Below are positions 4,614 through 45,715 of a stretch of 64,000 nt of DNA, one piece after another (position 1 is the stretch's first letter; the number at the start of each line of letters is the position of its first letter). Source of the DNA: Escherichia phage pEC-M719-6WT.2. Made by a program: the position numbers and the translations under genes. Location of the stretch: the sequence record OQ845958.1; one strand, given 5' to 3'. The notes under the pieces are model-generated. The model was not told where the DNA came from, ran no database searches, and saw only the letters and a program-made list of their open reading frames with translations.

Positions 4614-4649
4614 TGCTTTAATTTTATGGCTGTATAATGGTTCTAGACC
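4614..4649 (+). promoter_or_regulatory. MotA-box middle-promoter cassette upstream of uvsY (TGCTTTA-N12-TATAAT-GGTTCTAGACC)
   Basis: TGCTTTA 4614-4620, extended -10 TGTATAAT 4631-4638, conserved GGTTCTAGACC 4639-4649. Confidence 0.6.
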
Positions 4650-4666
4650 CTTACATTGGATACATT

Positions 4667-5101
4667 ATGAAAACAGAGATTGAATATAAGTTGGAAGTCT
4701 TTCAGGACGAGTTAGATGCAGATTTAAAAATTGATGGTACACAACTTCAATATGAAACACAAAACAACGTTTTGTTGCATAGCAAATGGTTGAGATTGTA
4801 TACCAACTGCAAGAAAGAAATAATGCGTCTTGAGATTCAGAAGAAAACTGCACTGAAAAAACGACTAGACCATTATACGGGAAGAGGTGACCCAGGGGAA
4901 GAGGTATGCATGGATGTATACGAGAAGTCAGAATTGAAAACAGTCATGGCAGCAGATTCAAACATACTGAAGATTGATACTTCAATTCAGTATTGGGCAC
5001 TACTCCAGGACTTCTGTAGCGCTGCATTAGATGGTGTTAAGTCGCGAAGTTTCGCACTTAAACATATGTTAGAAATAAGACAATTCGAGGCAGGCAAATA
5101 A
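4667..5101 (+). CDS. uvsY: Recombination mediator UvsY
   Basis: Matches T4 UvsY (LQYE..NNV.L.SKWL, YEKSE.KTV, IKSRSFALKHM); start set to ATG 4667 (MKTEIEYK); MotA-type middle promoter upstream. Confidence 0.95.
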   Translation: MKTEIEYKLEVFQDELDADLKIDGTQLQYETQNNVLLHSKWLRLYTNCKKEIMRLEIQKKTALKKRLDHYTGRGDPGEEVCMDVYEKSELKTVMAADSNILKIDTSIQYWALLQDFCSAALDGVKSRSFALKHMLEIRQFEAGK

Positions 5102-5334
5102 TGCGATATTCTATCGACGATGCGTTTAACCAAGACGAAGAGTTCGAAGAAGAAATTAAGTATATGATGAAGGAATGGAAATTGAATCGTGCAGATATTC
5201 GTATCTGCGCTGACCACCCTTGCGGTGAAGATGTTATCTATGTTAAAGGTAAATTTGCAGGATACATCGATGATGCGTTCTATTCTCACAATATGGGGAT
5301 AGATACTGGTATGAGATACTTTAAGGAAAATTAA
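5101..5334 (+). CDS. Hypothetical protein in the uvsY.-1 position
   Basis: 77 aa ORF overlapping uvsY stop (ATGA); positional analogue of T4 uvsY.-1. Confidence 0.5.
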   Translation: MRYSIDDAFNQDEEFEEEIKYMMKEWKLNRADIRICADHPCGEDVIYVKGKFAGYIDDAFYSHNMGIDTGMRYFKEN

Positions 5335-5445
5335 ATGAAAAATATTAGTAAGATTCTCGACGAGATGGTTATCTCTGCAAACCGAATAACTGAAATTGTT
5401 AATGAGATGAAAGCTCGTGCTGCTATTATGAAGAGCACTAAATAG
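5335..5445 (+). CDS. Hypothetical small protein (36 aa)
   Basis: Short ORF with TAAATG overlap with the upstream gene; below the track size cutoff; weak. Confidence 0.3.
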   Translation: MKNISKILDEMVISANRITEIVNEMKARAAIMKSTK

Positions 5446-5473
5446 ATATGTAAGTTTAACTGAGGAGACAATC

Positions 5474-5641
5474 ATGTCAGATAAGATTTGTGTTGTCTGT
5501 AAAACTCCAATCGATTCTGCATTGGTTGTGGATACAGACCAAGGTCCGGTGCATCCGGGCGCCTGTTATAATTATGTTCAGAGTTTGCCAGTTACGGAAA
5601 ATACAGAAGAGCAACTGAACGAGACCCAACTTTTAATTTAG
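5474..5641 (+). CDS. Hypothetical Cys-containing small protein (55 aa), uvsY.-2 position
   Basis: Strong RBS GAGGAG 8 nt before ATG 5474; CxxC near N-terminus; followed by a hairpin terminator. Confidence 0.45.
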   Translation: MSDKICVVCKTPIDSALVVDTDQGPVHPGACYNYVQSLPVTENTEEQLNETQLLI

Positions 5642-5666
5642 CTAGTGTTGTTAACCATTTTTGGTT

Positions 5667-5698
5667 TTGCCCCTTCCTTTTGGTTGGGGCCTTTTTAT
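5667..5698. terminator. Bidirectional hairpin terminator (GCCCC...GGGGC + T-run)
   Basis: Inverted repeat 5669-5673/5686-5690 followed by CTTTTTATTT; sits between convergent genes. Confidence 0.55.
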
Positions 5699-5926
5699 TT
5701 AGAAATCTTCGTCTTCGTCGTCGTCCATATCCTCAAGCTCGGCGCGTTTACCGGCAAGAGCATCACGAACACTGATATCATCGGAATCTTTTAGTTCAGC
5801 TTCTTTGCTGCGTTTTTTATAATAGCCTTCCAACTCCTTCAGACCGTCCATGGTCTGACAGGAACCAATCTTAGCCATAAAGCCTTCAATTGATGCTTCG
5901 TACATAATTTCTTCGAAGGATTTCAT
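5699..5926 (-). CDS. uvsW.1: UvsW.1-like small acidic protein
   Basis: 75 aa acidic C-terminus; position 3' of uvsW as in T4. Confidence 0.55.
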   Translation of the reverse strand: MKSFEEIMYEASIEGFMAKIGSCQTMDGLKELEGYYKKRSKEAELKDSDDISVRDALAGKRAELEDMDDDEDEDF

Positions 5927-6621
5927 TATATTTCCACCTGTTTAATTAAATTTCTGATTTTATATAAAGAAAGCCCCGTTGCTACAGAAGCTTGCTTCAT
6001 CGAACCATATTCAATCCCGTTTAAAACCACTTTCTTAGCGGCAGGATTTTTGGATGGGTCTTTATAACGTTCTTTTGCTTTATCTGAAATTTTCTTTGAT
6101 GCTTCTGGTGTATGTGATTTACCATACATCCAATTACCTTCACCTTTATTTCTTTCAGATATAGCTTGACATTGTGCTTGAGAGTATTTATACGGATTCG
6201 CTTTCTTTGTCGCAGATATTTTATCGGCCCAAGTTATTTTGCGACCCTTCAATAATTGGCTCATATATTCTTTATGTTCTTCAGTATGGTGCTTACCATA
6301 AAAAGGATTACCTTCACCAGTTTGAAGAGCTGACATTTGCCTACGCTCCCATCCATACGATTTATTAAATTGTCGTTGATGTGTCCGAGAGCTCATACCC
6401 ATAGCAATGACGGCCTTTATAAGACCGTAATGATTAGGATGAATTTTGGCCAATAATTTATGTGCAATAAAATGTTCTTCCGGAGTAAGGTTGACTCTGT
6501 TTTCTTGTGTATCAGGTCCACCCATACATTCTGGAATAATATGGTGAGATTCCGTATATCCAATTGGTTTGGAAGCCTTTCGGCTCCCAATTAAATCATC
6601 ATATATTTTTTGATAATTCAA
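5926..6621 (-). CDS. Free-standing HNH homing endonuclease with NUMOD3-like repeats
   Basis: HNH signature (HHIIPECMGG..N..H) at N-terminus; two GEGN(P/W)(F/M)YGK.HT.E repeats; start/stop overlap uvsW and uvsW.1. Confidence 0.8.
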   Translation of the reverse strand: MNYQKIYDDLIGSRKASKPIGYTESHHIIPECMGGPDTQENRVNLTPEEHFIAHKLLAKIHPNHYGLIKAVIAMGMSSRTHQRQFNKSYGWERRQMSALQTGEGNPFYGKHHTEEHKEYMSQLLKGRKITWADKISATKKANPYKYSQAQCQAISERNKGEGNWMYGKSHTPEASKKISDKAKERYKDPSKNPAAKKVVLNGIEYGSMKQASVATGLSLYKIRNLIKQVEI

Positions 6622-8117
6622 ATTTCCACCTGTTTAATTACATAGTTAAACCGTTCATCAGCATATCTTTGTATACGTTCAAGGCCATGCTTTAGGGCAA
6701 AGTTCAAATGAACATATTTCTTTTTAGCATTTGCCGATTTAGGTTTAACACCCATATCGTCAACGATATCAAAAACGTTTGCTTGTGATTTGGATTCATG
6801 TTTTCGAAGCACGCGGCCAATTGTCTGGAGTACAATTACCTTTGACTTGACCGGGTGAGCGAAAATAATATGATGGAGGTTTTTAACGGAAATACCCGTC
6901 GAGAATACACCGTATGAAGCTACAACAATAATTCCTTTTCCATTCTCTGCCATGACCTTTAATGCATTACGAGTTTCGGTATCAACTTCCCCGGAAACAT
7001 AATACACTTTCTCATGACCAGCTTCCTTAAGCATTTCAAACATCGATTTGCCATGCTCGATATTCTTAAACATCAAAAAGACGTTTTCATCTTTTTTAGC
7101 AAGCTTGAGAGCAAGATTTGTTACCCATTTATTTCGGCGTGTAGCTTTTGTAATTACCTTAATTTCATCCTGATAAGTTTTACCTTTCATTTTAACGGTA
7201 AATTCATCAGGGTAACGAAGGAAAATACTATTTATTTTAAGGTCAGTAACCTGTCCATCTTCCATCAATTTAGATGTGGATACTGGTTTAAAGATATCAC
7301 CAAACAGACCCATATATTGCATAAGGTTGGCTTTGCCGTCACGGAGTGAACCTGACAAACCAAATTTAAACGTACAATTCGTAAGGCCTTCGATAACCGT
7401 CGAAATTGATTTACCTGTCGCCATATGACATTCGTCATTCATAAACTGGCCAAACTGTTCAAACCATTCTTTAGGTTGTTTTACAGCCGTCTGATAAGTC
7501 GATACATAAATCATCGCATCAGAATCGCGTTTGGTACCAGAACGAATACCCAGACAAGCTTCACGAGGGAACAGACGATAATCAACAAAGTCATTAATCA
7601 TCTGGTCAACGAGCGCAGTTGTAGGAACAAGGATAAGTACTTTGCCTTCATAGTTCTCGAGATAATATCGCGCCAGAAGCGCCTGGATGAGACTTTTACC
7701 TGCAGACGTAGGTAAGTTCAGAATCTTTCTTCTGTTGACCAGACCATCATATACGGCGTCAGATTGATACCAATGGGGAGTTATCTTGGTATTGCCTGAA
7801 TAGATTTCTTTTGACTCGACCCATTTGTCGAATTCTTCGCGAGAGATTTCTTCTTTCTCTGTGATTTGTGGGTCAATCCAGAATGAATAGCCAAACTGGT
7901 CAGCGAACTTTTTAATTTGATTAACCAAACCGTATGGTAATTTACGATTGTAATCCAGGAGGCGGATTCGTCCGTCCCAAACTCCCTGCTTGAATTTTGG
8001 ATTGAAGCGATAGTTTTCAGCTTCGAAGCTGAAGTAATCACGGAGTTCGTAGAAGATTCCATCTTCACATTCAACATGCACGTGACTAAAATTTAGAAAG
8101 TTGATTTTAATATCCAT
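6618..8117 (-). CDS. uvsW: UvsW DNA/RNA helicase
   Basis: Strong match to T4 UvsW (NLPTSAGKS Walker A, DECH box); track start is a GTG extension, start set to ATG 8115-8117 (MDIKINF). Confidence 0.95.
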   Translation of the reverse strand: MDIKINFLNFSHVHVECEDGIFYELRDYFSFEAENYRFNPKFKQGVWDGRIRLLDYNRKLPYGLVNQIKKFADQFGYSFWIDPQITEKEEISREEFDKWVESKEIYSGNTKITPHWYQSDAVYDGLVNRRKILNLPTSAGKSLIQALLARYYLENYEGKVLILVPTTALVDQMINDFVDYRLFPREACLGIRSGTKRDSDAMIYVSTYQTAVKQPKEWFEQFGQFMNDECHMATGKSISTVIEGLTNCTFKFGLSGSLRDGKANLMQYMGLFGDIFKPVSTSKLMEDGQVTDLKINSIFLRYPDEFTVKMKGKTYQDEIKVITKATRRNKWVTNLALKLAKKDENVFLMFKNIEHGKSMFEMLKEAGHEKVYYVSGEVDTETRNALKVMAENGKGIIVVASYGVFSTGISVKNLHHIIFAHPVKSKVIVLQTIGRVLRKHESKSQANVFDIVDDMGVKPKSANAKKKYVHLNFALKHGLERIQRYADERFNYVIKQVEI

Positions 8118-8145
8118 GATGATTCCAAGGTAATAAATATATCTA

Positions 8146-8153
8146 TATTTATA
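8146..8153 (-). promoter_or_regulatory. Late promoter (TATAAATA on minus strand) for uvsW
   Basis: Plus-strand TATTTATA about 30 nt upstream of the uvsW ATG. Confidence 0.5.
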
Positions 8154-8171
8154 CACTAACCGAGGTTCATC

Positions 8172-8837
8172 ATGATTGACAAGAACTACATTGAGGAAAT
8201 TCGTGTCCTCGAGAAAAAAGAAGCCAAAGAAAAATTAGCCGAATACGCAGCATCACTTGGCGTTGATGTTAAGAAAACAAAAACCTTTGATAATATGTTG
8301 GCTGACCTGGAAGCAGGACTTAAAGCATTTGCTGACATGCCTATGCCTGATGATAATGAAGGTCTGAGCATCACTGACCTTATCGATGCCGACGATGAAT
8401 TGTCAGGTGCTAAATTTGATGGCGATGAGTCAGCTAAAGAAGAAGCTAAACTCTTATTTGATGCTCCAACCGAAGCAAAGGTTGAAGTTGTTGAAATCGA
8501 AGAACCAGTTGTTTTGGTCGAAGAAGATGTTCCTTTTATCGAAGAAAAGTTCGAAGCAGCTGTTGCTAAGGTTGTCGAATCTGAAAAACCTGTATTTGCT
8601 CTGCCAAAAAACTTTAGTCCAAATCTTATGCTTATTGGCAAGAACCCTGGATTCTGTACTGTTCCGTGGTGGATTTATCAGTGGATTGCCGAGACTCCGG
8701 ATTGGAAAGAACGTCCAACTGCTTTCCCACATCCCACCGCGCATCAAACCCTATTCAGTTTGATTTATTACATCAATCGTAATGGGTCTGTTCTAGTACG
8801 AGAAACTCGTAACTCATCTTTTGTCACTTTAAAATAA
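8172..8837 (+). CDS. inh: Inh-like protein (inhibitor of prohead protease), acidic
   Basis: 221 aa; position immediately upstream of hoc matches T4 transcription order inh-hoc-24.3-24.2-rnlB; sequence identity not verified. Confidence 0.55.
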   Translation: MIDKNYIEEIRVLEKKEAKEKLAEYAASLGVDVKKTKTFDNMLADLEAGLKAFADMPMPDDNEGLSITDLIDADDELSGAKFDGDESAKEEAKLLFDAPTEAKVEVVEIEEPVVLVEEDVPFIEEKFEAAVAKVVESEKPVFALPKNFSPNLMLIGKNPGFCTVPWWIYQWIAETPDWKERPTAFPHPTAHQTLFSLIYYINRNGSVLVRETRNSSFVTLK

Positions 8838-8846
8838 GGGTTTATT

Positions 8847-9980
8847 ATGGCTTATACCGTAGCTATTGCTCCTTTGGCGGCTACGGCCGTTATTGGAGCA
8901 ACAACCAATTTCACTGCAACCGGCTCTGGTGCTGCAGCTGAAGGTGTTGAATCATTTGTATGGACCGTTGATGGCGTTCCTCAATCTTCTGTGACTGCAG
9001 CAATGGATTATGTCGCTGTTGGCCCAGCAGGCAGTAAGACTATTAAAGTTGTTGCAACTACCACTCCGGCAGACGGTGAACCGGAAACTGCTGAGGCTGA
9101 GACAACTTTAACTATCCAGAATAAAACAATGCCTGCTATTACATTGACTTTAGACCCTGCCTCTGTTACTAAAGAAGTGGGGCAATCTCAAGTTGTTACT
9201 GCTAACGTGACAGGCGCTCCTTCTGGTGCAACAATCGCTTACGTTTGGAAACGTAACACTAGCGTAATCGCAGGTCAAACTGGTAAAACTATTACCGTCA
9301 CCGAATCAGCAGAAGCAAATTATACATTGAACTGTGAAGTTACTGTTTCTGCACCCGATTATAATAATGGCACCGCATCTAAAGGAGCTGCGGTAACTTT
9401 TGTTAAGAAAACTATGTCGGGTGTTTCTGTTACTTTAGCACCGACCTCTATTAATGTTCCTGAAGGAACTCCGGCTTCTTTTAAAGCTACTGTAGCCGGT
9501 GCGCCTGCTGGTGCTACTTTTGCCTATTCTTGGAAGAAAGATGGTTCACCAGTCGCTGGTACCACGGATACTTTGGCAATCGATACAAGCGCCGAAGGTT
9601 CCCAGTTAATTGAAGTTTCTGTTGTTGTATCTGCTACAGATTATAACCCTGTAACCGTTACCAAAACTGGTAATGTAACAGTCACGGCTAAAGTCGCACC
9701 AGTTCCAGATGGCGAATTACCATATATTCACCCATTGCCAGTACGTAATTCAGCTTATATCTGGTGTGGTTGGTGGGTTATGGATGAAATTCAGAAAATG
9801 ACTCTTGCTGGGCAAGACTGGAAAACTGATGACCCAGATAGCCCGTATTATTTGCACCGATACACACTTCAAAAAATGATTACCGACTATCCAGAGGTTG
9901 ATGTACAAGAATCTCGTAATGGTCGAGTTATTCATCGCACCGCTTTAGAAACTGGTATTATATACGATTACGTTTATTAA
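8847..9980 (+). CDS. hoc: Hoc, highly immunogenic outer capsid protein (Ig-like repeats)
   Basis: 377 aa; C-terminal region matches T4 Hoc (YIWCGWWVMDEIQKMT, YYLHRYTLQKM, ESRNG). Confidence 0.9.
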   Translation: MAYTVAIAPLAATAVIGATTNFTATGSGAAAEGVESFVWTVDGVPQSSVTAAMDYVAVGPAGSKTIKVVATTTPADGEPETAEAETTLTIQNKTMPAITLTLDPASVTKEVGQSQVVTANVTGAPSGATIAYVWKRNTSVIAGQTGKTITVTESAEANYTLNCEVTVSAPDYNNGTASKGAAVTFVKKTMSGVSVTLAPTSINVPEGTPASFKATVAGAPAGATFAYSWKKDGSPVAGTTDTLAIDTSAEGSQLIEVSVVVSATDYNPVTVTKTGNVTVTAKVAPVPDGELPYIHPLPVRNSAYIWCGWWVMDEIQKMTLAGQDWKTDDPDSPYYLHRYTLQKMITDYPEVDVQESRNGRVIHRTALETGIIYDYVY

Positions 9981-9983
9981 TTA

Positions 9984-10012
9984 AAAAGGGACCTTCGGGT
10001 CCCTTTATTTTT
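9984..10012 (+). terminator. Rho-independent terminator after hoc
   Basis: AAAGGGACC ttcg GGTCCCTTT hairpin followed by T-run. Confidence 0.7.
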
Positions 10013-10100
10013 ATGGTACTGAGCAAACGTTGCCTGGCCCCTTCTCCGGTAAGTCCTTGTGGTCATACCATAACAATTGTTCATCTGGCATAAAAATCAT

Positions 10101-10130
10101 GTTTACAAGTTAAAAATTCCATGTTAAGAT
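10101..10130 (+). promoter_or_regulatory. Early-type promoter (GTTTAC -35, TAAGAT -10)
   Basis: GTTTAC 10101-10106, 18 nt spacer, TAAGAT; upstream of the 10160 ORF. Confidence 0.4.
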
Positions 10131-10159
10131 AGCTTCACTAACTCAACATGAGAATCATT

Positions 10160-10351
10160 ATGGATAAGGTTAAAGTACATTTTTTGCATGAATCTGGCAT
10201 GACATTTATTGAAATCGCCAAGGTATTAGGCGGGACTGCTAAAGAGATGGCAAAGGCCTGGGTTGATGTAGAACAAGCCAAAGCTAAATTTAAAGCGAAA
10301 GAAAAGATTGTTTATCGTAAACGTTTGAATAACAAAAAGGTGAAGAAATGA
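10160..10351 (+). CDS. Hypothetical small basic protein (24.3 position)
   Basis: Track ORF 10148-10351; second ATG 10160 chosen; lysine-rich C-terminus. Confidence 0.45.
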   Translation: MDKVKVHFLHESGMTFIEIAKVLGGTAKEMAKAWVDVEQAKAKFKAKEKIVYRKRLNNKKVKK

Positions 10352-10611
10352 CATTCGCAGAAGAACTACGCCAAATAGCCAAAGAGTCACAAGATAAAGT
10401 TGCAAATGACTTTATTTCTATATTTCGCAAAGTGGCTATTGCCGCCGCCGAGAACGGCAAAGATGCTGTTAATATGGCAGTTTCTGAAAAAGAGTATGAA
10501 GAAGGAAACCGCGCAAAGATATCTGAATTTCTGCGAGCAGAAAAATTTACATCTTTTACCTGGAATTATGATTGGCAAGAATCCAAGCCAATGCTGTATG
10601 TAAAATTCTGA
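10348..10611 (+). CDS. Hypothetical protein (24.2 position)
   Basis: 87 aa ORF with ATGA overlap with the upstream ORF. Confidence 0.45.
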   Translation: MTFAEELRQIAKESQDKVANDFISIFRKVAIAAAENGKDAVNMAVSEKEYEEGNRAKISEFLRAEKFTSFTWNYDWQESKPMLYVKF

Positions 10612-10618
10612 CCCTTTT

Positions 10619-10655
10619 TGCTTCAAATAAAAATGCGGTATAATGGTTCTAGACC
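10619..10655 (+). promoter_or_regulatory. MotA-box middle-promoter cassette (TGCTTCA-N13-TATAAT-GGTTCTAGACC)
   Basis: TGCTTCA 10619-10625, TATAAT 10639-10644, conserved GGTTCTAGACC downstream; upstream of rnlB. Confidence 0.55.
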
Positions 10656-10741
10656 CTTTGTGACTATTAATTCCTTTCAAAGAAAGAAAGTATAGCGGGT
10701 CTAATTTATAATGATATTTATAACATCAAAAGTGAGAGATT

Positions 10742-11749
10742 ATGTTTAAGAAATACAACAGCCTTGAAAATCACTATAATAACAAGTTCATTGAAAAGAT
10801 TCGCCTGCAAGGCTTCACCAGCGGTGAATGGGTAGCTCGTGAGAAAATTCATGGTACCAACTTTTCATTAATCATTGAACAAGACAATGTGACATGCGCG
10901 AAACGCACTGGACCTATTCTACCTGCAGAAGATTTCTATGGTTATGAAATTGTATTAAAGAACTACGCAGATTCTATTAAATCTGTGCAGAAACTTTTGC
11001 AGGATATTAATTACCAGGCTTACCAGATTTATGGCGAGTTTGCTGGTACAGGTATTCAGAAGAATGTGGATTACGGCGATAAAGATTTCTATGTGTTTGA
11101 TATCCGCGTTACTAAGGAAGATGGCTCTGAATCCGTCCTGACTGACACACTTATGGAAGCCTTTTGTATTATTCATAAGTTTAAAGTTGCCCCACGCCTG
11201 GCCACAGGTAGCTTTGAAGACTTGATTAAGCTCCCTAATGACCTGGATTCTGTGGTCCCTGATTACAATTTTACAGTGGATAACGCAGGATTGACTACAG
11301 CAAATACCACTGATTTTGATGCAAAGGTGGAAGGTAAAGTATTCACTGCTGAAGGATTTGTATTAAAACCTGATGTTCCTGCATGGTTACCTAACGGTGA
11401 GCGCGTAGCGATTAAATGCAAGAACTCTAAATTCAGTGAAAAGAAAAAGTCTGATAAGCCTATTAAAGCTGCAGTTGTGTTGTCACAGGAAGACCTGGAT
11501 GTTTTATGGAAGTTCACTGATTATGTGACTGTTAACCGCATCAATAATGTTATCAGTAAGATTGGGGAAGTATCGCCGAAGGATTTTGGGAAGGTAATGG
11601 GTTTGACTGTCCAGGATATCCTGGAAGAAGCGGGTCGTGAAGGCCTTGAATTAACCCAGACGGAAAATCCTGTTGAAGTTAAAAAGCAACTTATCGCAAA
11701 TGTAAGAGAAACATTAAGACATGTTTGGATTGCATTAATTAGTGAATAA
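10742..11749 (+). CDS. rnlB: RNA ligase 2 (Rnl2)
   Basis: 335 aa; very strong match to T4 Rnl2 ([32 protein letters not shown]). Confidence 0.95.
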
Positions 11750-11778
11750 AAAAGGGCCACAAGGCCCTTATTCTTTTT
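11748..11778. terminator. Bidirectional hairpin terminator (GGGCC...GGCCC)
   Basis: AAAAAGGGCCacaaGGCCCTTATTCTTTTT between convergent rnlB and the 24 paralog. Confidence 0.7.
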
Positions 11779-13051
11779 CCAGCGGTGGAAGTTTAACACC
11801 AAGATAAGAACTCAATTGACTTTGGTTAGCCATCTTATCCATATCAGCTCCATCAATAAGGCGAGCTTCTTTATCATCTTTAGCAACGGTGTAAGGGTTT
11901 GCAGTCAAAGCATAACGAGCTAACAGTGCAACCGTAGGCTGTAAGCTTTCAGGGTCAACAATAACCTTGAATTCCCCAACCGAGGTATCACCCTCATCAT
12001 CAACTTCGCTAAGCCCTTCCGTATAAGGCGCATAATACAAAGATGCGACCGTCTGACCCTCGCCCATATCCGCATTTACACCAACAATAACATAATCGCA
12101 TGGACTATTCATATCTGCATAAAGAGGCAAACCGTTCTTCAGAACACCATAGGCCAATTCATCCTGGTCTTCCTTTTTCTCAACCCAACCAGAAGCGGCT
12201 AAAATAGCTGCACAACGGGAAGAAGCAACCGCATATGTACCAGCAAATGAAGTCTGACGTTGAACTGCAGAATTCATTTCACACATATAATAATACAGGG
12301 TTCGCGCGCGGTCCTGTGCGTTATCATATTTCGGGTCAGTGAGATTCAACACGCCTTTTTCAGAAACACCTTGTACCTTGAAGCGGGAACTAACAGTAAT
12401 AAGGGATTGCAATACATCCTTATTAATTTCCTCCGCCATTTGAATACCGAGAATATTATCGATGAAGTCTGTTGCATCGAAACCGTTTGCTTCCAGGTCC
12501 TGGGCAAGCTCGACAGTTAAAGAAGTTTTCAACTTTCTGGATTTAACTTCAGTCTGCCATTTATCGATACGGAACCCAGCTTCAGCAATTTCAGGATGCC
12601 CCTTTTCAAATTTATCAGTGAAAGCAGCATCTGACATCATTCTTATATGTCCAGCAGCAATGGCTTCAGAAATAACTTCACCTAAATCAGTTTCGAGTGT
12701 CCCGGCGAATGGTGATGCTTCCAGAACTTTGAATACAACGCTTTCAAACTGAAACATATCGCCGACTGCATAAGCTTCGTCTTTGTTTGTAAATTCTGGA
12801 ATATTCTTACGCTCGAACATACCAATCTGACCTGCAAATGTTGCTCCACCGAGATAAGTCATTTTATCATCTGGGTTCAGAACACGAACACCATACAGGG
12901 CTGCAACAGGCTGGGTAGTTTTCTGTTCGGCCACGAGCGCTTTAAAAATTCGTTTATTCGTAGCCTGAGTATAAGAAAGCAAATTAGGACGGGCGACCTG
13001 GTTGGCCGCCGTTAATGTTGATTCGTGAATTAGTGCATTAATCTTTTGCAT
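11768..13051 (-). CDS. Head vertex protein gp24 paralog (second, diverged copy)
   Basis: 427 aa; alignable with the adjacent gp24 along its length (TNQPVAALYGV, KSRKLKT.LTVELAQDLEANGF, NPYTVAKDDKEAR); in tandem. Confidence 0.85.
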   Translation of the reverse strand: MQKINALIHESTLTAANQVARPNLLSYTQATNKRIFKALVAEQKTTQPVAALYGVRVLNPDDKMTYLGGATFAGQIGMFERKNIPEFTNKDEAYAVGDMFQFESVVFKVLEASPFAGTLETDLGEVISEAIAAGHIRMMSDAAFTDKFEKGHPEIAEAGFRIDKWQTEVKSRKLKTSLTVELAQDLEANGFDATDFIDNILGIQMAEEINKDVLQSLITVSSRFKVQGVSEKGVLNLTDPKYDNAQDRARTLYYYMCEMNSAVQRQTSFAGTYAVASSRCAAILAASGWVEKKEDQDELAYGVLKNGLPLYADMNSPCDYVIVGVNADMGEGQTVASLYYAPYTEGLSEVDDEGDTSVGEFKVIVDPESLQPTVALLARYALTANPYTVAKDDKEARLIDGADMDKMANQSQLSSYLGVKLPPLEKE

Positions 13052-14332: not shown

Positions 14333-14358
14333 TTGCGCTTTCCTTTTGTGATATACTT

Positions 14359-14366: not shown

Positions 14367-14372
14367 AAAGTT

Positions 14373-14402
14373 GTTTACAACCAGATTAAGATAAGACATA
14401 AT
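14373..14402 (+). promoter_or_regulatory. Early-type promoter (GTTTAC-N18-CATAAT) with conserved leader CCATACTGAGTTA
   Basis: GTTTAC 14373-14378, CATAAT 14397-14402; the same leader recurs at about 52551 and 53597. Confidence 0.5.
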
Positions 14403-14443
14403 GATTCCATACTGAGTTAACAAACAAAACCTGGAGTTTAAAA

Positions 14444-14725
14444 ATGAACAAAGCAACTTTCCTTCTGAACACCTTTAAAAAATTGGAAATTGAAGTTATT
14501 GCATTGGTCAACAAATACCCAAATGGTGTTAATGGTAATGCTCTGAACAAACTAGTTAAAAAATATGAAAACTTAGCATATGACACTGATTTCTGGTGGA
14601 ATGGTAATTATTCTACTCACACTAAAGATAAAAATGGTAACTGGTTGAAACTTCAAGAAAACAATGTTAACTTCAGAGACCTCATCAAGCGCCGGGTAGA
14701 AGTTCATTTAAATGGTATGGTATGA
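14444..14725 (+). CDS. Hypothetical protein encoded opposite to the late genes, between 23 and 24
   Basis: 93 aa ORF with GGAG RBS, own early-type promoter and own terminator; occupies the position of segD in T4 but has no endonuclease motifs. Confidence 0.5.
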   Translation: MNKATFLLNTFKKLEIEVIALVNKYPNGVNGNALNKLVKKYENLAYDTDFWWNGNYSTHTKDKNGNWLKLQENNVNFRDLIKRRVEVHLNGMV

Positions 14726-20153: not shown

Positions 20154-20645
20154 TTATTCCCACCAGTCAATTGCGAACGTTGCTTCGAACGTTTCAATTT
20201 CGTTGTTACTGTCCCAATCCATCTGGACTTCCCCAACGTTGGTTGGCCACATGCCGGTAATAACAACTTCTTTCGTAACGGTCTTACCATCACGATGGAA
20301 CTGACGAACAGTAGCGGTTTTCTTATAATCAGCAGGAGCTGCACCGGTGATTTCGTTAGTCATACCGTGACACAGGTTTTGCCAATCAACAATTGCTTGA
20401 CGAACTTTATGAGCATCGTCGTTATAAATCGTAATAGTCCAGTCATCAAATGTACGGTCGCCCGCAACGTTGATTTTACGGTTCATGTAACCGACAGGAA
20501 CTTTTTCTACAATGCCAGCAGGCATCGGGGCTGCTTTACAATGGAAAGCAAAGTTTTTACCCAGGAATGGGATTTCGACTTCGAACAGGTTAGGGCGAGC
20601 AAAGTCGCCGGATTCGAAAGCGCGTGTGATATCGGTCAACTCCAT
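20154..20645 (-). CDS. 19: Tail tube protein gp19
   Basis: Matches T4 gp19 (TRAFESGDFARPNLF, VTKE..I.G.WPTNVGE.Q.DWDSNNEI); start set to internal ATG (MELTDI) with AAAGAGGA RBS. Confidence 0.95.
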   Translation of the reverse strand: MELTDITRAFESGDFARPNLFEVEIPFLGKNFAFHCKAAPMPAGIVEKVPVGYMNRKINVAGDRTFDDWTITIYNDDAHKVRQAIVDWQNLCHGMTNEITGAAPADYKKTATVRQFHRDGKTVTKEVVITGMWPTNVGEVQMDWDSNNEIETFEATFAIDWWE

Positions 20646-20696: not shown

Positions 20697-20704
20697 GTAT
20701 TTAT
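20697..20704 (-). promoter_or_regulatory. Late promoter (TATAAATA) for gene 19
   Basis: Plus-strand TATTTATA about 50 nt upstream of the gp19 ATG. Confidence 0.5.
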
Positions 20705-20760
20705 ACTAGGTAATATGATTCATCATCTCAAGATAACGGCTTCCCAGAATCAACTACAGG

Positions 20761-20808
20761 AGCCCGTAGAACCGATTATGCTTTTATTTATACCACTGTA
20801 TAATGGTT
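20761..20808 (+). promoter_or_regulatory. Palindromic middle-promoter-like cassette (TGCTTTT-N13-TATAAT-GGTTCTACGG), oriented antisense to gene 18
   Basis: 10-nt perfect inverted repeat CCGTAGAACC/GGTTCTACGG flanks a MotA box, TATAAT and an internal TATTTATA. Confidence 0.5.
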
Positions 20809-20849
20809 CTACGGTTTCTAACTGATTAATTCATTCTAAGCGATGATAA

Positions 20850-22829
20850 TTATTGTGGCCCAATCAGCTCATCAAAATCAGCACCAGTGCTAGTGGCTAC
20901 GAAGTTAAGAGTGATGTAGTTGATGCTGCGCGCAGGTTTAAAATAAATGCTAGCAACAAACTCATTTCGGTCTATGACCGACGGGGTGTTGTTAGTAGTA
21001 TCACAAACTACACGACCTTCATAAATGCCACCAAGTGCACGAATACCATCCAAGTATTGAGAAGTTTCCATACGGAATGATGCACGAGTGAAGTTATCGT
21101 TAAGCTCAAACAGTTTATATTTGGATGCATCACCGATATTTTTCTTCAGCATATTCGTAAGACGACGAACGTTAATATGGTCCATCGGAGATGGAACTTT
21201 AGTTGCAGTCTTATCACCATACAGAACAAAACCATCACCACCTGCGAAACCAACAACCGGGTTGATAGCTTCTTGATACATGCGGTCACGTTGGGTCTGA
21301 CGTGGTTCAACAGCCAATTTCAGAACGTTCAGAATCTGACCGCGGTTATAACCAGCCGGAGACATCCAAGGCTGAGAAACATCATCAGTACGAGCACACA
21401 GACCAGCCATATCAGCTGCCAGAGGAACCCAACGGTTAACGTCATTATATTTATCATACTGATATTTATAGTTGCCATCAATCGCTGCATAAGTCGTGCT
21501 GATATTCATGTTATCAGTATCAAATGCGCCAGCACCTGTACGCCAGTCAATCAGGTTATCCACTGCACGGGTCAGAGGAACGTTAACCAACAGACCTTTC
21601 GGCGGGGAAATAAATGCCAGACAATCCTGACGTTCGTCAGCAATAGAAACCACGTGTTTCTGAACAGTGGAAGCGGTTGCATCACCTTCACCAGCTACTG
21701 CACCAGCGATAAGCAGGTTAATATGCAGTGCTTCACGGTCAGCAAACAGGTCCCAACCTTGCATCAAATCACCAGCGGTAATCTTATCGTTTGCAGAAAT
21801 ACCACCAGACAGATTGATGATACCACTGAAGCCTGCAGGCCAGTTGCGAGATGTTGCATAGATGTAGTTGGAAGTACCTTTTGCAAAGTAGTCATCCAGA
21901 TAAATGTTATTACCGTAAACATCTTTTTCGCCCTGCTTGGTAGACAAAACAACGTTTTCGACGATTGCACCATCGCGGCGAACGATAATTGCATATTGGT
22001 TTTCAGACTGAGGACCATAGTTAAACACGGCACGAGCCACAGAAGCACGCGTTCCGCCGCCCGGGAAAATATTCAGATTTGCAGCTGCGCCTTTTTCAAA
22101 TTCAGCTTTAGATACGATTTCAACTTCCAGAGTAGAACCGATTTCGCCTGGATAAAGAGCAACAACACCTGGCATTGCATATTTTGCTAATGATGCCTGG
22201 AATTCCAGAGAAGTAATTGCTTCTTCACTGTTTTCTGCTTCAGTCAACAGAATTCCAGAATCGGTAACAATTTTCCCAACAGTGATGGTACCAGATACAC
22301 CAGAAGAAGTGGTTGTAACTTCCGCAGTCCATGCACTACCTAAATTAGGATACTGATTAATAGTTTTGGCAAATGCAATAATCTTATCGGTAGGAATAAA
22401 GATTGCCTGAATTTTACCATCAACGTCGACCTTGGTCACACGGCCAGCCGGTTCAACAACAGTCTGGTTGTGTTTAACCTGAATAACATCACCGACAGCA
22501 TAGTTTGTACCAGCAGTTACGATGGTAGTTTCAATATTGCCAGCAATAGGGGATGCGTTTTTAGCTTCGTCACGGTTAACAACACGTACAGTACGGAGGT
22601 CATTACCATATTGCAGGAAGTTCATCCCACTCATAAAGTAATCTGCTGTTTCATTATTCGGACCACCAAACAAATCAACAAGTTCAACTTCGTTTGTAAT
22701 TTGAGTTACCTGGAAAGCTGGGCCCCACTGGAATTTACCAACCAGCGCCGCACGACCCGTCGCGTTACGAACAACAGTGCTTTGTACCGTTGTTTCTTTG
22801 AGCTCAATGCCCGGGGATAATAAAGCCAT
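20850..22829 (-). CDS. 18: Tail sheath protein gp18
   Basis: 659 aa, same length as T4 gp18; near-identical blocks (LLSPGIELKETTVQSTVV, SPAGYNRGQILNV). Confidence 0.97.
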   Translation of the reverse strand: MALLSPGIELKETTVQSTVVRNATGRAALVGKFQWGPAFQVTQITNEVELVDLFGGPNNETADYFMSGMNFLQYGNDLRTVRVVNRDEAKNASPIAGNIETTIVTAGTNYAVGDVIQVKHNQTVVEPAGRVTKVDVDGKIQAIFIPTDKIIAFAKTINQYPNLGSAWTAEVTTTSSGVSGTITVGKIVTDSGILLTEAENSEEAITSLEFQASLAKYAMPGVVALYPGEIGSTLEVEIVSKAEFEKGAAANLNIFPGGGTRASVARAVFNYGPQSENQYAIIVRRDGAIVENVVLSTKQGEKDVYGNNIYLDDYFAKGTSNYIYATSRNWPAGFSGIINLSGGISANDKITAGDLMQGWDLFADREALHINLLIAGAVAGEGDATASTVQKHVVSIADERQDCLAFISPPKGLLVNVPLTRAVDNLIDWRTGAGAFDTDNMNISTTYAAIDGNYKYQYDKYNDVNRWVPLAADMAGLCARTDDVSQPWMSPAGYNRGQILNVLKLAVEPRQTQRDRMYQEAINPVVGFAGGDGFVLYGDKTATKVPSPMDHINVRRLTNMLKKNIGDASKYKLFELNDNFTRASFRMETSQYLDGIRALGGIYEGRVVCDTTNNTPSVIDRNEFVASIYFKPARSINYITLNFVATSTGADFDELIGPQ

Positions 22830-39184: not shown

Positions 39185-39189
39185 GGTTT

Positions 39190-41159: not shown

Positions 41160-41167
41160 TTTATTTC

Positions 41168-41461
41168 CTATTTTATAAAGACTTTTGATGAGGCTTGAGC
41201 CACAGTATCACCACATGAAATCGGGTCTGCCATTTGAACAGCTTTCTTACCGGTAACGAATACCTTTGATGTACGCGGTTGTGTTACTCCGCCGTGGGTT
41301 TCATATGGTTTTTTAATTTCGGTATGCTCGGTAATAGGGTCTCCGGCAACTAATACTGGAATTCCCCCGGTGAATACTTTACCTTGAGTTGCATTAATTA
41401 CAGTCGGCGGCCATGCTTCGTGGCCTGCTGTAACACATTGATTAAAACTTAATCCAGCCAT
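41168..41461 (-). CDS. 5.4: PAAR-repeat tip protein of the central spike, gp5.4
   Basis: 97 aa, same size as T4 gp5.4; Gly/Val-rich; position after gene 5. Confidence 0.75.
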
Positions 41462-41958
41462 TAATCCCTCGCGTATACGTATGAACGCAATTTATCGGCC
41501 CATCTTGACCAGTTGCCAACGATAGTTTTTGTGTAAACTTTTGTCATTGTCTTTCTTACTGGAGCAGGAGGTGGGTCGGTCTCATTACCTGTACGGCTAT
41601 TACTGCCACCAGAGTTCCCTGTGTCTCCACCAGAGCTCTCTTCTTGAAAATCATAGGTTAGGGTTACCGTGTATGAAAAGACCTTCTGGAGGCTCGATGG
41701 GGCCCTCCAGAGATACAATTGAGTACTCTTATCGGTAGGAAGGTCTTCCCATGAACCAGCAGTTTTAAATTCGTCATTAAGCCGATATTTAAGTGCATCA
41801 TCTGCAAATCCGAACACGGATTCATAAACACCATAAAGATGATTTCCCTCAACATTAACGCCAGGGGTGACCTCATATTCAGTTATATTTATTTCGACTA
41901 ATGTTTCGTTTGTTTCTAATTGAGCTGTAAACGTAACATCGATTGAGGCTCCTTCCAT
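41461..41958 (-). CDS. 5.1: Hypothetical protein in the gp5.1 position
   Basis: Track ORF 41461-42042; start moved to internal ATG with AGGAG RBS (MEGASIDV) to avoid overlap with gp5. Confidence 0.5.
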
Positions 41959-41992
41959 GGAGTCTCCTAGGTCAGTGCTCATCGGAAGTATA

Positions 41993-43735
41993 TTAGCCAA
42001 TGTCAATCCTCGAACCATCAATAGTATATTGACCAGATGCAATAGAACTCATTGAAGCCATAGTCTCGGACCAATCACCTGCACAAGTCCAAGATACGGT
42101 ACCATTTACAGTCCAGTTTAAATTACCATTAGTCGTGCGAGTTTCATTACCTTCTACTAAGGTAGTCGCATCACCCTTAACAGTAACATCAGCGTTTCCT
42201 TCAACAATAACAGTAACGTTGCCTTTAACTCTGAGTGTTCCATTACCTTCTACAGTTTTCTCTTCGTTACCACGAATATGGATGGTTTCGTTTCCATCGG
42301 TCTGACGACGAACGTTAGCCATATTGTAATAGGTTTCATCACCACCTATATTGACTTTATTATTCCCACCCACGTAAGTGCTCGAATCACCCTGGGTCAT
42401 ATAATAGCCATCGGCTACCGTCTTCGAAGTCTTACGACCATCTGGTGCAACTTCCTCATAAGAACCAGTCGGATGAATCAGTCGATAACGTTCTTGTCCT
42501 GGAGTGTTATCGAATTCCTGAATATGTCCGCCTTCGGTTTGCATTGTCTGCACATAAGGATATTCACCTTTGTAACTTGATTCTGGCTCTTTAAATAGAA
42601 TCCTCGTATCTTCTGGAGTCCACGGGTCGGCCGGGTCAGAATTTGTAGGGGCCGCAAAGGTTTGAATCATCCTATATGAACGCCCTTTAAATTCCATTTC
42701 TTTAGGGGCCATAATACCATATGATTCCATATTACCAGTAAGGATAATCATTGATACCCTTGATGCACGCCCTTTAGTTTGGTTAAACCATACTGAATTA
42801 CGAGCTTCCTCAAATGCCTTTTTATAATCGCCTATTAACATTGCACTAAGCATTCCACGGAATTTAGCAAGTCCACCTAATCCCATTTGGAAAGCCATGT
42901 TTTCAAGAGCCATTTGTCTTGAACGGTTTTCTTTATTGTAAACCGGACCTACAACACTATGTCTACCTATATCATTTTGGACTTTTTTAAGGTCTTCTTG
43001 GAATAACTTAGAAGCCTCGTCCATTGATATTGCACCAGGGTTACCTTTAACTTCACGGCCTATTTGATTAGATAATATTTTGTTTATCTGATTCATATCT
43101 CTAATAGGTTGTGGTGTAATTAAGTGTCCTATACCTATAGTAGGATAACCTTCAGTGTCCCAATATACTTTCAGACGAAGACCTTCATCACGGTGAAGCA
43201 TATTTTCAATTGTGAAATTAGGATTATCATCTGGCTTAACTTGACTCAAATCAAGGCCATCAGGGTTAATACCCAAATCAAGGTTTGCATCCTGAATTAC
43301 GTTTGAAGTGTCATCATAACCGACCTCACCGCCTCGGTTAAGCGCAGCAGCATCATTGCCCACATAAAGCGGATATTGCCCTGTGGGGTCGCTAAAACCT
43401 TCTGTTGTGTTTGCCTTCTGTCTTGATGCTGAGCCATATGTACCAAGGACTAATCCATTGAGCTTCCACTTGTCCAAAAAGTGACCATATACTTGAGTCC
43501 CTGGTACCATACCAGTCATGGCAGTTTGAATACCGGAAACCGATGCAGATGATGTTGGCATCAATACGGACATCCATGGCAGGTCTTCAGTTCTGATACC
43601 TTTTACCGGCCCTTGTGATTTCTCATATGGATGCATACCCCATACCCGGACGCGAACACGACCTTGTTGAAGTGGGTCCATTCGGTCTTCGACAACACCG
43701 ACGAACCAACTTACACTATCTGACATATTAATCAT
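41993..43735 (-). CDS. 5: Baseplate central spike / tail lysozyme gp5
   Basis: 580 aa; T4-lysozyme-like domain (LRLKVYWDTEGYPTIGIGHLI) and C-terminal beta-helix repeats. Confidence 0.95.
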   Translation of the reverse strand: MINMSDSVSWFVGVVEDRMDPLQQGRVRVRVWGMHPYEKSQGPVKGIRTEDLPWMSVLMPTSSASVSGIQTAMTGMVPGTQVYGHFLDKWKLNGLVLGTYGSASRQKANTTEGFSDPTGQYPLYVGNDAAALNRGGEVGYDDTSNVIQDANLDLGINPDGLDLSQVKPDDNPNFTIENMLHRDEGLRLKVYWDTEGYPTIGIGHLITPQPIRDMNQINKILSNQIGREVKGNPGAISMDEASKLFQEDLKKVQNDIGRHSVVGPVYNKENRSRQMALENMAFQMGLGGLAKFRGMLSAMLIGDYKKAFEEARNSVWFNQTKGRASRVSMIILTGNMESYGIMAPKEMEFKGRSYRMIQTFAAPTNSDPADPWTPEDTRILFKEPESSYKGEYPYVQTMQTEGGHIQEFDNTPGQERYRLIHPTGSYEEVAPDGRKTSKTVADGYYMTQGDSSTYVGGNNKVNIGGDETYYNMANVRRQTDGNETIHIRGNEEKTVEGNGTLRVKGNVTVIVEGNADVTVKGDATTLVEGNETRTTNGNLNWTVNGTVSWTCAGDWSETMASMSSIASGQYTIDGSRIDIG

Positions 43736-44334
43736 AGCGCCTTCTCCATCTCGCGGATTAATGCCGAAATAAATGATTCGATATCATTAGGGTCGATTAT
43801 CTTTATTTCTCGTTTATATTCATTTTTGCGAATAGCATCTTCGTAGATATCCACTGCAGCTAATGGGCCTTCATACTGTGGGTATAATTTGTTCTTATCA
43901 CCTTTATCATACCATGTGTATGGATTATCAGGATAAGAAACAAGATTCCAGAATTTTTCACCATCTTCATTTACATGATAAAGAACTTGATTACCACCTA
44001 TATTCGAATAGCGTTGAATTGATGCCTGATACGATGATTCTTGTGAACATATCCAACCATAATACGGGTCATAGATATTATTAAGCATAAGGAGAACCCA
44101 ATAGAGTTGAGTATTACCATAGAGCTGATATGCAAGTTCTTCAGGTCTCGGAGCTCCGGCGATGTAATATGTTTTCGGTGTATAATTAACCGCAACCTTA
44201 TCAAAATACGCACGATAGTTTCTGAAGATGTCAGTCATTGGGATGCTTAAGACATCTTCTTTCGTTAATGATGCCGAGTTTTTTCTGATTGTTTTAGCAT
44301 CATAATCAATTGGGTTAAAAAATGAAAAAAGCAT
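43732..44334 (-). CDS. 53: Baseplate wedge protein gp53
   Basis: Matches T4 gp53 (IPMTDIFRNY, PRPEELA, QLYWVLLM, DPYYGW, DNPY.WYDKGDK); start set to internal ATG (MLFSFFNP). Confidence 0.9.
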   Translation of the reverse strand: MLFSFFNPIDYDAKTIRKNSASLTKEDVLSIPMTDIFRNYRAYFDKVAVNYTPKTYYIAGAPRPEELAYQLYGNTQLYWVLLMLNNIYDPYYGWICSQESSYQASIQRYSNIGGNQVLYHVNEDGEKFWNLVSYPDNPYTWYDKGDKNKLYPQYEGPLAAVDIYEDAIRKNEYKREIKIIDPNDIESFISALIREMEKAL

Positions 44335-44342
44335 AAAGCCTC

Positions 44343-44375
44343 CATTTATAAATAAGTATATCAATATTTATTAGG
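44343..44375. promoter_or_regulatory. Divergent late-promoter region (TATAAATA for gene 4; near-consensus on the opposite strand for gene 53)
   Basis: CATTTATAAATAAG: plus-strand TATAAATA 44347-44354 lies 29 nt before the gp4 ATG. Confidence 0.55.
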
Positions 44376-44382
44376 AGGCTAT

Positions 44383-44832
44383 ATGGCATACTCCGGGAAA
44401 TTTAAGCCCACTAATATAGAAAAATATAAGGGCGACTGGAAGAAAATACAATACCGGTCAAGCTGGGAGGCTTGGTTGATGAGATGGCTCGACAACCATC
44501 CGAACGTTGTTCAATGGGGCTCTGAGACTGTGATTATTCCATACTTCTGCAATGCTGAAGGGAAAAAGCGCAGATATTATATGGATTTCTGGGTTAAGTT
44601 CGATACGGGACAACAGTTCTTTTTCGAAGTTAAGCCATTAAAAGAAACAAGACCTCCAGCCAAGCCAGTTAATAATACAGCCGCGAGTAAAAAGAGATTT
44701 ATTAACGAGATGTACACCTGGAGCGTTAACTCTGACAAATGGAAAGCTGCGCAAGCTACCGCTGATAAAATGGGCATAACGTTCAGGATAATCACTGAAA
44801 ACTCACTGAAAAAATTAGGATGGAAAGGATGA
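44383..44832 (+). CDS. 4: Head completion protein gp4
   Basis: 149 aa; strong match to T4 gp4 ([41 protein letters not shown]). Confidence 0.95.
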
Positions 44833-45653
44833 GTATTTTTACATTTATCAATGAATCTGCAGATAAACCAGGTCCGAAACCCAGTAAATCAGAACAACAA
44901 TGGGTTGAGATAGGGGTTGAATTTTATACAGCAAAAGAAAAAGGAATGACCTCGAAGAAGTTTGCTGAAGAGAAAGGAATCAACTATTCGACCTTTACCA
45001 AAAGCATGTCGAGATATCATTCAAGAATTCAGACTGCTTATAAAGTATCCAAGCTCAAAAAGAAACCTGCTGGTAAACTTACGAAGGCTGAACGCCAGCT
45101 GATAATGGTGAATAGCTTTAGGAAGAGCATAAGAGATAAGATTGCTAACGAAGGCGCTGCAAGCAACACCAAATCCGCCAGATGGTTCGCAGAGACAATT
45201 AAGAAATCAGTTCGTGGCCACGTAACGGCTAAACCTCAACCAGGTAAACTTTATGCTTATATCTATGATGCAAAGCATAAGGATACTCTTCCGTACTGGG
45301 ACAAATATCCGTTAATCATTTATCTTGGGCTAGGTAAGCACAATTTGATGTATGGTTTGAACTTGCACTATATTCCACCGAAGGCACGTCAAGAGTTCCT
45401 TGAGGAACTTCTTAAGCAATATGCCAATACTCCTACGATTACAAACAAGACTCATCTGAAGATTGATTGGTCAAAGGTGAAGGGATTTAAAGGGGCTGAC
45501 CAGATGATTAAAGCATATATACCCGGCAATATAAAAGGTACTATCACTGAAATCAAGCCCAGCGACTGGGCAAACGTTGTTATGCTTCCGTTGCAACAAT
45601 TTATGTCGAAAGGCAAAAGATTCTCTTCCCAGAAAGTATGGAGAAATTCATAA
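44820..45653 (+). CDS. 2: DNA end protector protein gp2
   Basis: 277 aa (T4 gp2 274 aa); position between 4 and 3. Confidence 0.8.
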
Positions 45654-45671
45654 TCTATTATCGGTCAGTGT

Positions 45672-45715
45672 TATTGGTAAGGACAAAAGGTCTAGAACCA
45701 TTATAACACTGATTG
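45672..45715 (-). promoter_or_regulatory. Middle-promoter-like cassette on the minus strand (TGCTTTA-N13-TATAAT-GGTTCTAGACC)
   Basis: Reverse complement of 45672-45715 reads tTGCTTTAaaacaatcagtgtTATAATggttctagacc; flanked by inverted repeat CAGTGTTAT/ATAACACTG; points antisense to genes 2 and 4. Confidence 0.5.

Follow-up and report, generated by a model that had tools for sequence, protein, structure and literature searches.

The stretch of DNA analysed here, 64,000 nucleotides of Escherichia phage pEC-M719-6WT.2 (sequence record OQ845958.1; hereafter the window), carries four copies of a short cassette resembling the middle promoters of phage T4, and the question raised by this locus is what role is played by the two copies which lie in the late region and point against the late genes. 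Pre-late RNA transcribed from the strand opposite the late genes ('anti-late' RNA) has been known in T4 since work of the 1970s. It is proposed, with a probability of approximately 0.6, that the four repeats are four of six genomic copies of a subfamily of T4-type middle promoters, typified by the promoter of uvsY, and that the antisense members of this subfamily are active in cis. The proposal is based on the anatomy of the copies, their non-random occurrence, their conservation among related phages and the experimental mapping of two family members in T4.

A first-pass annotation, made from the sequence alone, had described four cassettes consisting of a MotA-like box, a spacer of 12-13 nt, TATAAT and the downstream pattern GGTTCTA(G/C)(A/G)(C/G)C. 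This description was borne out: the composite motif TGCTTYW-N{12,13}-TATAATGGTTCTA was found four times in the window compared to 0.00 times expected (100 dinucleotide shuffles), and a frequency no higher than random expectation, which had been named beforehand as a result that would count against the claim, was thus not observed within the window. The exact 13-mer TATAATGGTTCTA was identified at 4633 (+), 10639 (+), 20799 (+) and 45693-45705 (-), and the perfect but shorter motif TGCTTYW-N12/13-TATAAT matched the same four sites only (0.07 expected). Furthermore, GGTTCTA directly follows TATAAT at 4 of the 76 such hexamers in the window, while no other 7-mer occupies that position more than twice. 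The downstream block was absent at other MotA-box-like sites in the early region of the window (49438, 50389 and 53949) and is therefore not a general promoter feature. The downstream pattern as first described holds in general, with the exception of its final base at copy 3, which reads GGTTCTACGGT. All four copies are intergenic. The spans originally given for copies 1 and 2 were correct, as was the antisense orientation of copies 3 and 4 into late genes, while the spans of the latter two (20771-20806 and 45672-45715) were displaced by 8-17 nt and are corrected in Table 1.

The consensus T4 middle promoter consists of a MotA box, (a/t)(a/t)(a/t)TGCTTtA, near -30, followed after 12 +/- 1 bp by a -10 element, TAtaaT (PMC2988021). 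All four window copies have a MotA box preceded by A/T-rich bases, a spacer of permitted length (12, 13, 13 and 13 bp for copies 1 to 4 respectively) and a perfect TATAAT. Transcription from the T4 promoters PuvsY and PnrdC.7 starts at the A of TCTA, seven bases past TATAAT (PMC2988021), and the starts predicted for the window copies (see Table 1 for details) were assigned by analogy with these mapped positions.

Table 1. Positions of the cassette copies, their surroundings and neighbouring genes. Positions refer to the window unless T4 or SP18 is named; slashes within a start block enclose the predicted +1.
Feature	Position	Strand	Details
Copy 1, uvsY promoter	4614-4652	+	Between gene 25 stop (4613) and uvsY ATG (4667); MotA box TGCTTTA 4614-4620; 12-nt spacer; TATAAT 4633-4638; GGTTCT/A/GACCCTT; predicted +1 4645
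Copy 2, rnlB promoter	10619-10658	+	MotA box TGCTTCA 10619-10625; 13-nt spacer; TATAAT 10639-10644; predicted +1 10651, 91 nt before rnlB ATG (10742)
Copy 3, predicted antisense promoter	20779-20817	+	18/19 spacer, reads into gene 18 3' end; MotA box TGCTTTT 20779-20785; 13-nt spacer; TATAAT 20799-20804; GGTTCT/A/CGGTTT; predicted +1 20811
Copy 4, predicted antisense promoter	45687-45725	-	Gene 2/gene 3 spacer (45654-45738), predicted to cross gene 2 and gene 4 before reaching gene 53 (sense); MotA box TGCTTTA 45719-45725; 13-nt spacer; TATAAT 45700-45705; GGTTCT/A/GACCTT; predicted +1 45693
10-bp inverted repeat around copy 3	20764-20814		CCGTAGAACC (20764-20773) / GGTTCTACGG (20805-20814)
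Late-promoter motif for gene 19	20785-20792	-	TATAAATA; inside spacer of antisense copy 3; second motif at 20698-20705
9-bp inverted repeat around copy 4 -10/start block	45666-45711		CAGTGTTAT (45666-45674) / ATAACACTG (45703-45711)
Weak terminator-like hairpin	45557-45571	-	GCCCAGTCGCTGGGC + TTGATTT; ~125 nt past copy 4 start
uvsY	4667-5101	+	Start as in T4
rnlB (RNA ligase 2)	10742-11749	+
Gene 19 (tail tube)	20154-20645	-	Divergent from copy 3
Gene 18 (tail sheath)	20850-22829	-	Target of antisense copy 3
Gene 53	43732-44364	-	Beyond gene 4 end (44383); gene 5 likewise on minus strand
Gene 4	44383-44832	+	Target of antisense copy 4
Gene 2	44820-45653	+	Target of antisense copy 4
Gene 3 (tail completion)	45739-46338	+	Divergent from copy 4; ATG 13 nt from MotA box
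T4 copy	11885	+	srd/modA spacer, antisense to modA
T4 copy	53337	-	PnrdC.7
T4 copy	75988 (cassette NC_000866 75969-76010)	+	Gene 3/2 spacer, antisense to gene 2; orthologue of copy 4
T4 copy	115383	-	PuvsY
SP18 copies (six)			srd/modA (antisense to modA); nrdC.8/nrdC.6; gene 3/2 (antisense); 18/19 (antisense); rnlB; uvsY
Early promoter family	14398-14416, 52546-52564, 53064-53082, 53592-53610	+

Two further observations were made at the sense copies. Relatives such as SP18, where uvsY is annotated with a length of 465 nt, have this gene beginning at the equivalent of 4637, with the ATG inside the TATAATG of the -10 hexamer. The T4-like start (MKTE...) is at 4667, past the transcription start predicted at 4645; the annotated gene therefore probably begins 10 codons too early for the middle transcript, and the uvsY start-codon annotation of these relatives is corrected accordingly. 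At copy 2, the 5' hexanucleotide of the predicted rnlB transcript (AGACCC; window 10651-10700, +) can pair with GGGUCU 45 nt downstream to form a 5'-terminal stem-loop, the outer pairs of which (AGACCC/GGGTCT) are kept in SP18 and the fold stability of which is unexceptional (z = -0.6).

The resemblance to middle promoters claimed in the first-pass annotation is anchored by experimental data from T4, which has four copies of the block. Two of these are PuvsY and PnrdC.7, which are both MotA-dependent and have been mapped, with starts at 115371 and 53325 respectively, among 58 middle promoters (PMC2988021 Table 1); copy 1 is the positional orthologue of PuvsY. Pairwise identity was determined over positions -6 to +9 for the 58 mapped T4 promoters together with two predicted ones (1770 pairs). 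The six pairs formed by the four T4 family copies were identical at 10-14 of 15 positions and all fell within the top 9 of the 1770 pairs, compared to a background of 4.4 +/- 1.8 identical positions. The family block is absent from the approximately 55 other mapped T4 middle promoters, and only a partial likeness to it was seen in PnrdD+ (TATAATGAATCTGACACC) and in P34i, the promoter of oriG (TATAATGGTCCCAGAGAGTTCC). The T4 modA-side cassette (NC_000866 11865-11897, +) is arranged back to back with an early-promoter-like srd site (11822-11850, -) and also faces a bidirectional-looking hairpin following modA; with this layout, all three antisense members of the family are divergent from another promoter or gene start.

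The occurrence of the cassette was then compared among relatives of the window, the gene order of which is that of T4 reversed (26, 25, uvsY ... rnlB, 24, 23 ... 19, 18 ... 5, 53 | 4, 2, 3, 1, 57A). Over positions 4000-12000 the window is 98.4% identical to Escherichia virus TH40 and approximately 95% identical to Shigella phage SP18 (Gaprivervirus, Tevenvirinae). The first 169 kb of SP18 contain TATAATGGTTCT together with a MotA-like box at six intergenic sites (Table 1), and an exact 17-mer of the cassette was found in IMG/VR three times per Gaprivervirus genome and scarcely elsewhere. The earlier count of four is accordingly right for the window and incomplete for the genome, as the lineage has six per genome and the trait is common to T4-like phages, with the general consensus TATAAT GG(T/G)T(C/T)T A (A/G)G(T/C)CC. 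Neither motA nor asiA lies within the 64-kb window; both are annotated in SP18, and MotA is present in the VR20, VR26 and 2706795401 contigs. Among the contigs obtained by pattern-based retrieval, three with no MotA match also had no uvsY cassette, and four cassette carriers also had no MotA match.

The cassette upstream of uvsY is present in nearly all retrieved T4-like contigs, that in the srd/modA spacer in five phage groups, and that upstream of rnlB in JS98-like phages and several other groups, though not in T4-like contigs. The 18/19 spacer cassette was found in Gaprivervirus (VR20, contig 2706795401, also designated L079, and SP18), in JS98-like phages and in the L096 group, and is absent in T4 and VR26. 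VR26, which belongs to the same genus, has an unrelated 18/19 spacer (L078 1000-1215) and constitutes a natural deletion or replacement variant. The gene-3-side antisense cassette is found in Gaprivervirus, JS98-like and T4-like phages and in at least three other groups, the sole exceptions being cases in which genes 2 and 3 abut. Eleven sequences of the gene 2/3 spacer, from at least six phage groups, were aligned on the antisense strand. Invariant blocks of more than one base were limited to the GCT of the MotA box and TATAATGG, with the remainder of the spacer freely diverged, which is the footprint to be expected of a promoter functioning on the antisense strand. The sense strand of this spacer has no TATAAATA motif, and so the footprint does not fit a sense-strand signal.

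Within a lineage, variants of the block are often common to paralogous sites. T4-like phages have GAATCTAAGTCC at both the uvsY and modA-side copies, other groups have GGT or GGG forms, and the window has GGTTCTAGACC at the uvsY, rnlB and gene-3-side copies, with an identical 21-mer shared by the first two. This distribution suggests either short-patch gene conversion or co-evolution with a common factor, and conversion between the copies appears plausible from the sequences. Such uniformity is not universal, as JS98-like phages carry GGGTCTAGGTCC, GGTCCTAGGTCT and GGTTTTAGGTTC at different sites.

In the mechanism proposed, host RNA polymerase would be remodelled by AsiA and MotA a few minutes after infection, upon which all copies would fire, each from the A seven bases past TATAAT. 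Copies 1 and 2 would give rise to middle-period uvsY and rnlB mRNAs. Copies 3 (from 20811, +) and 4 (from 45693, -) adjoin the starts of late genes 19 and 3 respectively in divergent orientation, and would produce untranslated middle-period RNAs, that of copy 3 being complementary to the 3' end of gene 18 and that of copy 4 to genes 2 and 4. These antisense copies would most likely act in cis before and during the late switch, by opposing sense transcription or by pairing of their RNA with sense RNA at late-gene junctions; copy 3 would in addition occupy the overlapping late promoter of gene 19, and both copies would be defined sources of the classical 'anti-late' RNA. The firing of the antisense copies, the length of their RNAs and the effect of these are inferred. 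The shared block (GGTTCT, A at +1, GACC), which covers the discriminator and start, would most simply serve as a module for promoter strength and start-site choice. Contact between sigma-70 region 1.2 and the discriminator stabilises open complexes at promoters which have no -35 contact, and T at -1 with A at +1 is a known start-site preference; in this family, the invariant GG at -6/-5 may contact region 1.2 and T(-1)/A(+1) may fix the start, while gene conversion in short patches could keep the block alike among copies.

The properties of the predicted antisense transcripts were also assessed. The predicted promoters are oriented on the strand opposite their targets, as a discrete cis-antisense regulatory RNA would require. 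A search of the window against Rfam at gathering thresholds returned only two neighbouring tRNA genes (50792-50941, +; RF00005, 62 and 74 bits) and nothing downstream of the antisense starts, while the z-scores obtained on folding the predicted transcripts over their initial 56-150 nt lay between -1.0 and +1.3, indicating no structured RNA. No credible open reading frame follows the antisense starts, the one short frame encountered being of 16 codons without a ribosome-binding site. A 337-amino-acid open reading frame antisense within gene 18 (21177-22190, +), 366 nt past the copy 3 start, was rejected as a gene; it has no Pfam match and there is no long antisense open reading frame at this place in T4, and it is thus most likely a shadow frame. 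If not terminated, the copy 4 transcript would reach gene 53 in the sense orientation after 1.3 kb, and the same is true of T4.

Both antisense copies share their spacers with other signals (Table 1). The late promoter of gene 19 physically overlaps copy 3, and so occupancy of one should exclude the other; the 18/19 spacer of T4 likewise has two TATAAATA motifs. The right arm of the inverted repeat at copy 3 is the start block itself, and this repeat is conserved in SP18, VR20 and L079. In the case of copy 4, the sense mRNA running from gene 2 to gene 3 is the only transcript to contain both arms, and analogous, non-homologous inverted repeats were found in the gene 2/3 spacer of other phage groups. 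The inverted repeats of this spacer are most simply interpreted as hairpins of the sense mRNA which share limited space with the promoter.

A number of results weigh against a role for the antisense copies as active cis-acting promoters. No clear terminator delimits a discrete antisense RNA: none was found after copy 3, and the weak hairpin after copy 4 has no counterpart that could be found in T4 and is thus of doubtful significance. Neither the 76.0-kb nor the 11.9-kb copy of T4 is listed among the 58 mapped middle promoters (PMC2988021), and no promoter features are present at 75.9-76.1 kb in T4 records NC_000866 and AF158101; these copies could be silent, or could never have been looked for. 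The 18/19 copy, missing in VR26 and T4, is dispensable, and bases +2 to +8 of the block are not accounted for by a promoter module.

The main rival explanation is replication priming, which is considered unlikely, though less so than the other alternatives. According to this explanation the antisense copies would be primers of the oriF/oriG type, at which a MotA-dependent transcript persists as an R-loop and primes the leading strand, and would constitute secondary or cryptic origins in the late region. The same cassette at T4 uvsY is the core of oriF, the copies are by sequence middle-mode promoters, as is the case at such origins, and precedents exist in oriG, which uses the MotA-dependent P34i antisense inside late gene 34, and in oriE, with primers antisense to gene 5 (PMC3016281). 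The P34i block is also loosely similar (TATAATGGTCCCAGAGAGTTCC), CAATAAC recurs at approximately +17 to +30 past the uvsY and gene-3-antisense copies in several phage groups, and the T4 copies lie 0-5.7 kb from oriA, oriC, oriE and oriF. However, this proximity, which is based on loose origin positions, has a chance probability of approximately 0.04 and is only weakly non-random, and PnrdC.7 has the block yet no origin is reported there. To our knowledge, plasmid screens in T4 recovered only oriF and oriG, which also counts against this explanation. Moreover, the oriF R-loop is reported to need a promoter and an unwinding element and not a specific sequence (PMC3016281), and duplex stability over +1 to +60 (nearest-neighbour) singles out neither the antisense copies nor even oriG, the quantiles being 0.09-0.26 for copies 3 and 4, 0.07-0.14 for T4 oriF and 0.4-0.5 for oriG, such that the measure is not discriminating. 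Less likely again is that the uvsY-type module is a dispersed priming element, with four to six oriF-like units per T4-like genome and R-loops at the antisense copies adjacent to genes 3 and 19 and in the srd/modA spacer. If this were true, the R-loops might start or boost replication, or load sliding clamps for late transcription, in regions which are otherwise silent before the late period; the poorly defined oriA, oriC and oriE, 3-6 kb from T4 copies, could in part be explained; and either hybrid formation or a factor acting on these transcripts would depend on the conserved start block.

The remaining alternatives are improbable to differing degrees. The least improbable of them is that the shared block is an operator, with a phage or host protein recognising either DNA similar to GGTTCTAGACC or the extreme 5' end of the RNA, to form a regulon. 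The block is near-palindromic in some copies (GGTTCTAGACCC has one mismatched pair in 12 and T4 GGGTCTAAGTCCC one in 13), its lineage variants are common to paralogous sites (GAATCTAAGTCC in T4, GGTTCTAGACC in the window) and the other mapped T4 middle promoters do not have it; nevertheless the palindromy is not conserved, T4 PuvsY and PnrdC.7 being poor palindromes, the within-genome uniformity is not general (JS98-like variants), and we know of no candidate protein that binds the block. More doubtful is the possibility that the antisense copies are by-products of sense-strand signals (a late promoter together with an intergenic hairpin), silent relics, or substrates for inversion of the 25-kb late block. 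The overlap of copy 3 with a TATAAATA late promoter, the position of both antisense copies within inverted repeats that are complete only in the sense mRNA, and the lack of copy 3 in VR26 and T4 are all in keeping with a by-product. In opposition to this, the columns without variation coincide exactly with the MotA-box core and TATAATGG, 12-13 bp apart on the antisense strand, the hairpin arms vary in sequence and position between phage groups, and the gene 2/3 spacer carries no TATAAATA on its sense strand. Recombination between copies 3 and 4 as inverted repeats, as put forward in the first-pass annotation, was rejected: contiguous identity between the two is limited to 13 bases, the genes between them follow a single order in the window, SP18 and T4, and colinearity holds in every relative examined. 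Least probable of all is that copy 4 is a sense promoter with a long leader, whose transcript would cross genes 4 and 2 in antisense over 1.3 kb before becoming gene 53/5 mRNA for pre-late baseplate expression. Genes 53 and 5 are indeed in the sense orientation on the minus strand beyond gene 4, the layout is the same in T4 and no strong terminator intervenes there, but premature termination by Rho would be expected in an untranslated leader of 1.3 kb. Moreover, no gene lies in the sense orientation downstream of either copy 3 or the modA-antisense copy, and a long leader therefore cannot be the common role of the family.

With the copies taken as middle promoters of the uvsY type, the closest known system is T4 PuvsY (the core of oriF, or ori(uvsY)), which resembles copy 1 in MotA box, spacing, TATAAT and the TCT/A start, the other copies being alike from approximately -35 to +8; it differs in its block (GAATCTAAGTCC in T4 compared to GGTTCTAGACC in the window). 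T4 PnrdC.7 has a TATAATGGTTCTA identical to the window 13-mer and an SP18 orthologue upstream of nrdC.6, but it is a sense promoter in an early/middle region, outside the part of the genome covered by the window. P34i (oriG, or ori(34)) is similar to copies 3 and 4 in being MotA-type and directed against late genes in the late region (PMC3016281), but is located within a coding sequence and not, as copies 3 and 4 are, in an intergenic spacer adjacent to the starts of genes 19 and 3, and its block matches in part only. The oriE antisense transcripts of T4 (repEA/repEB) are, like the predicted copy 3 and 4 RNAs, pre-late and opposite in strand to late genes (PMC3016281), but come from an early promoter and encode small proteins, whereas no open reading frame follows copies 3 and 4. 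PeSL cassettes (Arbiol 2010, PMC2839356; Comeau 2014, PMC4122927) are likewise short, repeated, regulatory and able to exchange sequence; however, they are early (-35/-10) promoters at insertion/deletion boundaries in hyperplastic regions, whereas the present copies are of MotA type at fixed syntenic positions between core genes. The window copies have a MotA box in the -30 region and none was called by a simple sigma-70 scan, inverted repeats are found at copies 3 and 4 only, and all copies are syntenic.

Precedents exist both for middle promoters directed against the genes of late regions (P34i) and for promoter cassettes that are repeated (PeSLs, of early type). A literature search on 'anti-late' RNA found nothing relevant, and the primers of the modA-modB assay in a T4 dRNA-seq preprint (bioRxiv 10.1101/2024.04.04.588121) are aimed at the sense transcript. 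As far as was checked, what is new is the recognition of a subfamily of uvsY type, marked by its conserved start block and occupying six syntenic sites, together with its conserved antisense members, including two T4 copies which are missing from the table of mapped promoters. T4 middle promoters are the textbook case of sigma appropriation and PuvsY is its model promoter; PuvsY is seen here to be one of a small set of deeply conserved promoters that have an additional block spanning the start. This points to a requirement at the start site or discriminator, or to a regulator in common, beyond the standard description of MotA box and -10 element. The three conserved antisense members (at genes 2/4, gene 18 and modA), two of which are present in T4, are mutable candidate sources of 'anti-late' RNA and possible extra R-loop sites.

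A T4-type early promoter family, GTTTACA-N17-(C/T)ATAAT with its own conserved 17-nt block (GATTCCATACTGAGTTA), was found four times in the window compared to 0.03 times expected (Table 1), and the copy at 14398 lies between late genes 23 and 24, before a small plus-strand open reading frame (14444-14725). The mapped T4 middle promoters P24.3 (NC_000866 110108) and P52 (165227) have TATAATGGCAC(C/T)A in common across the start, and may represent another small family with a conserved start block.

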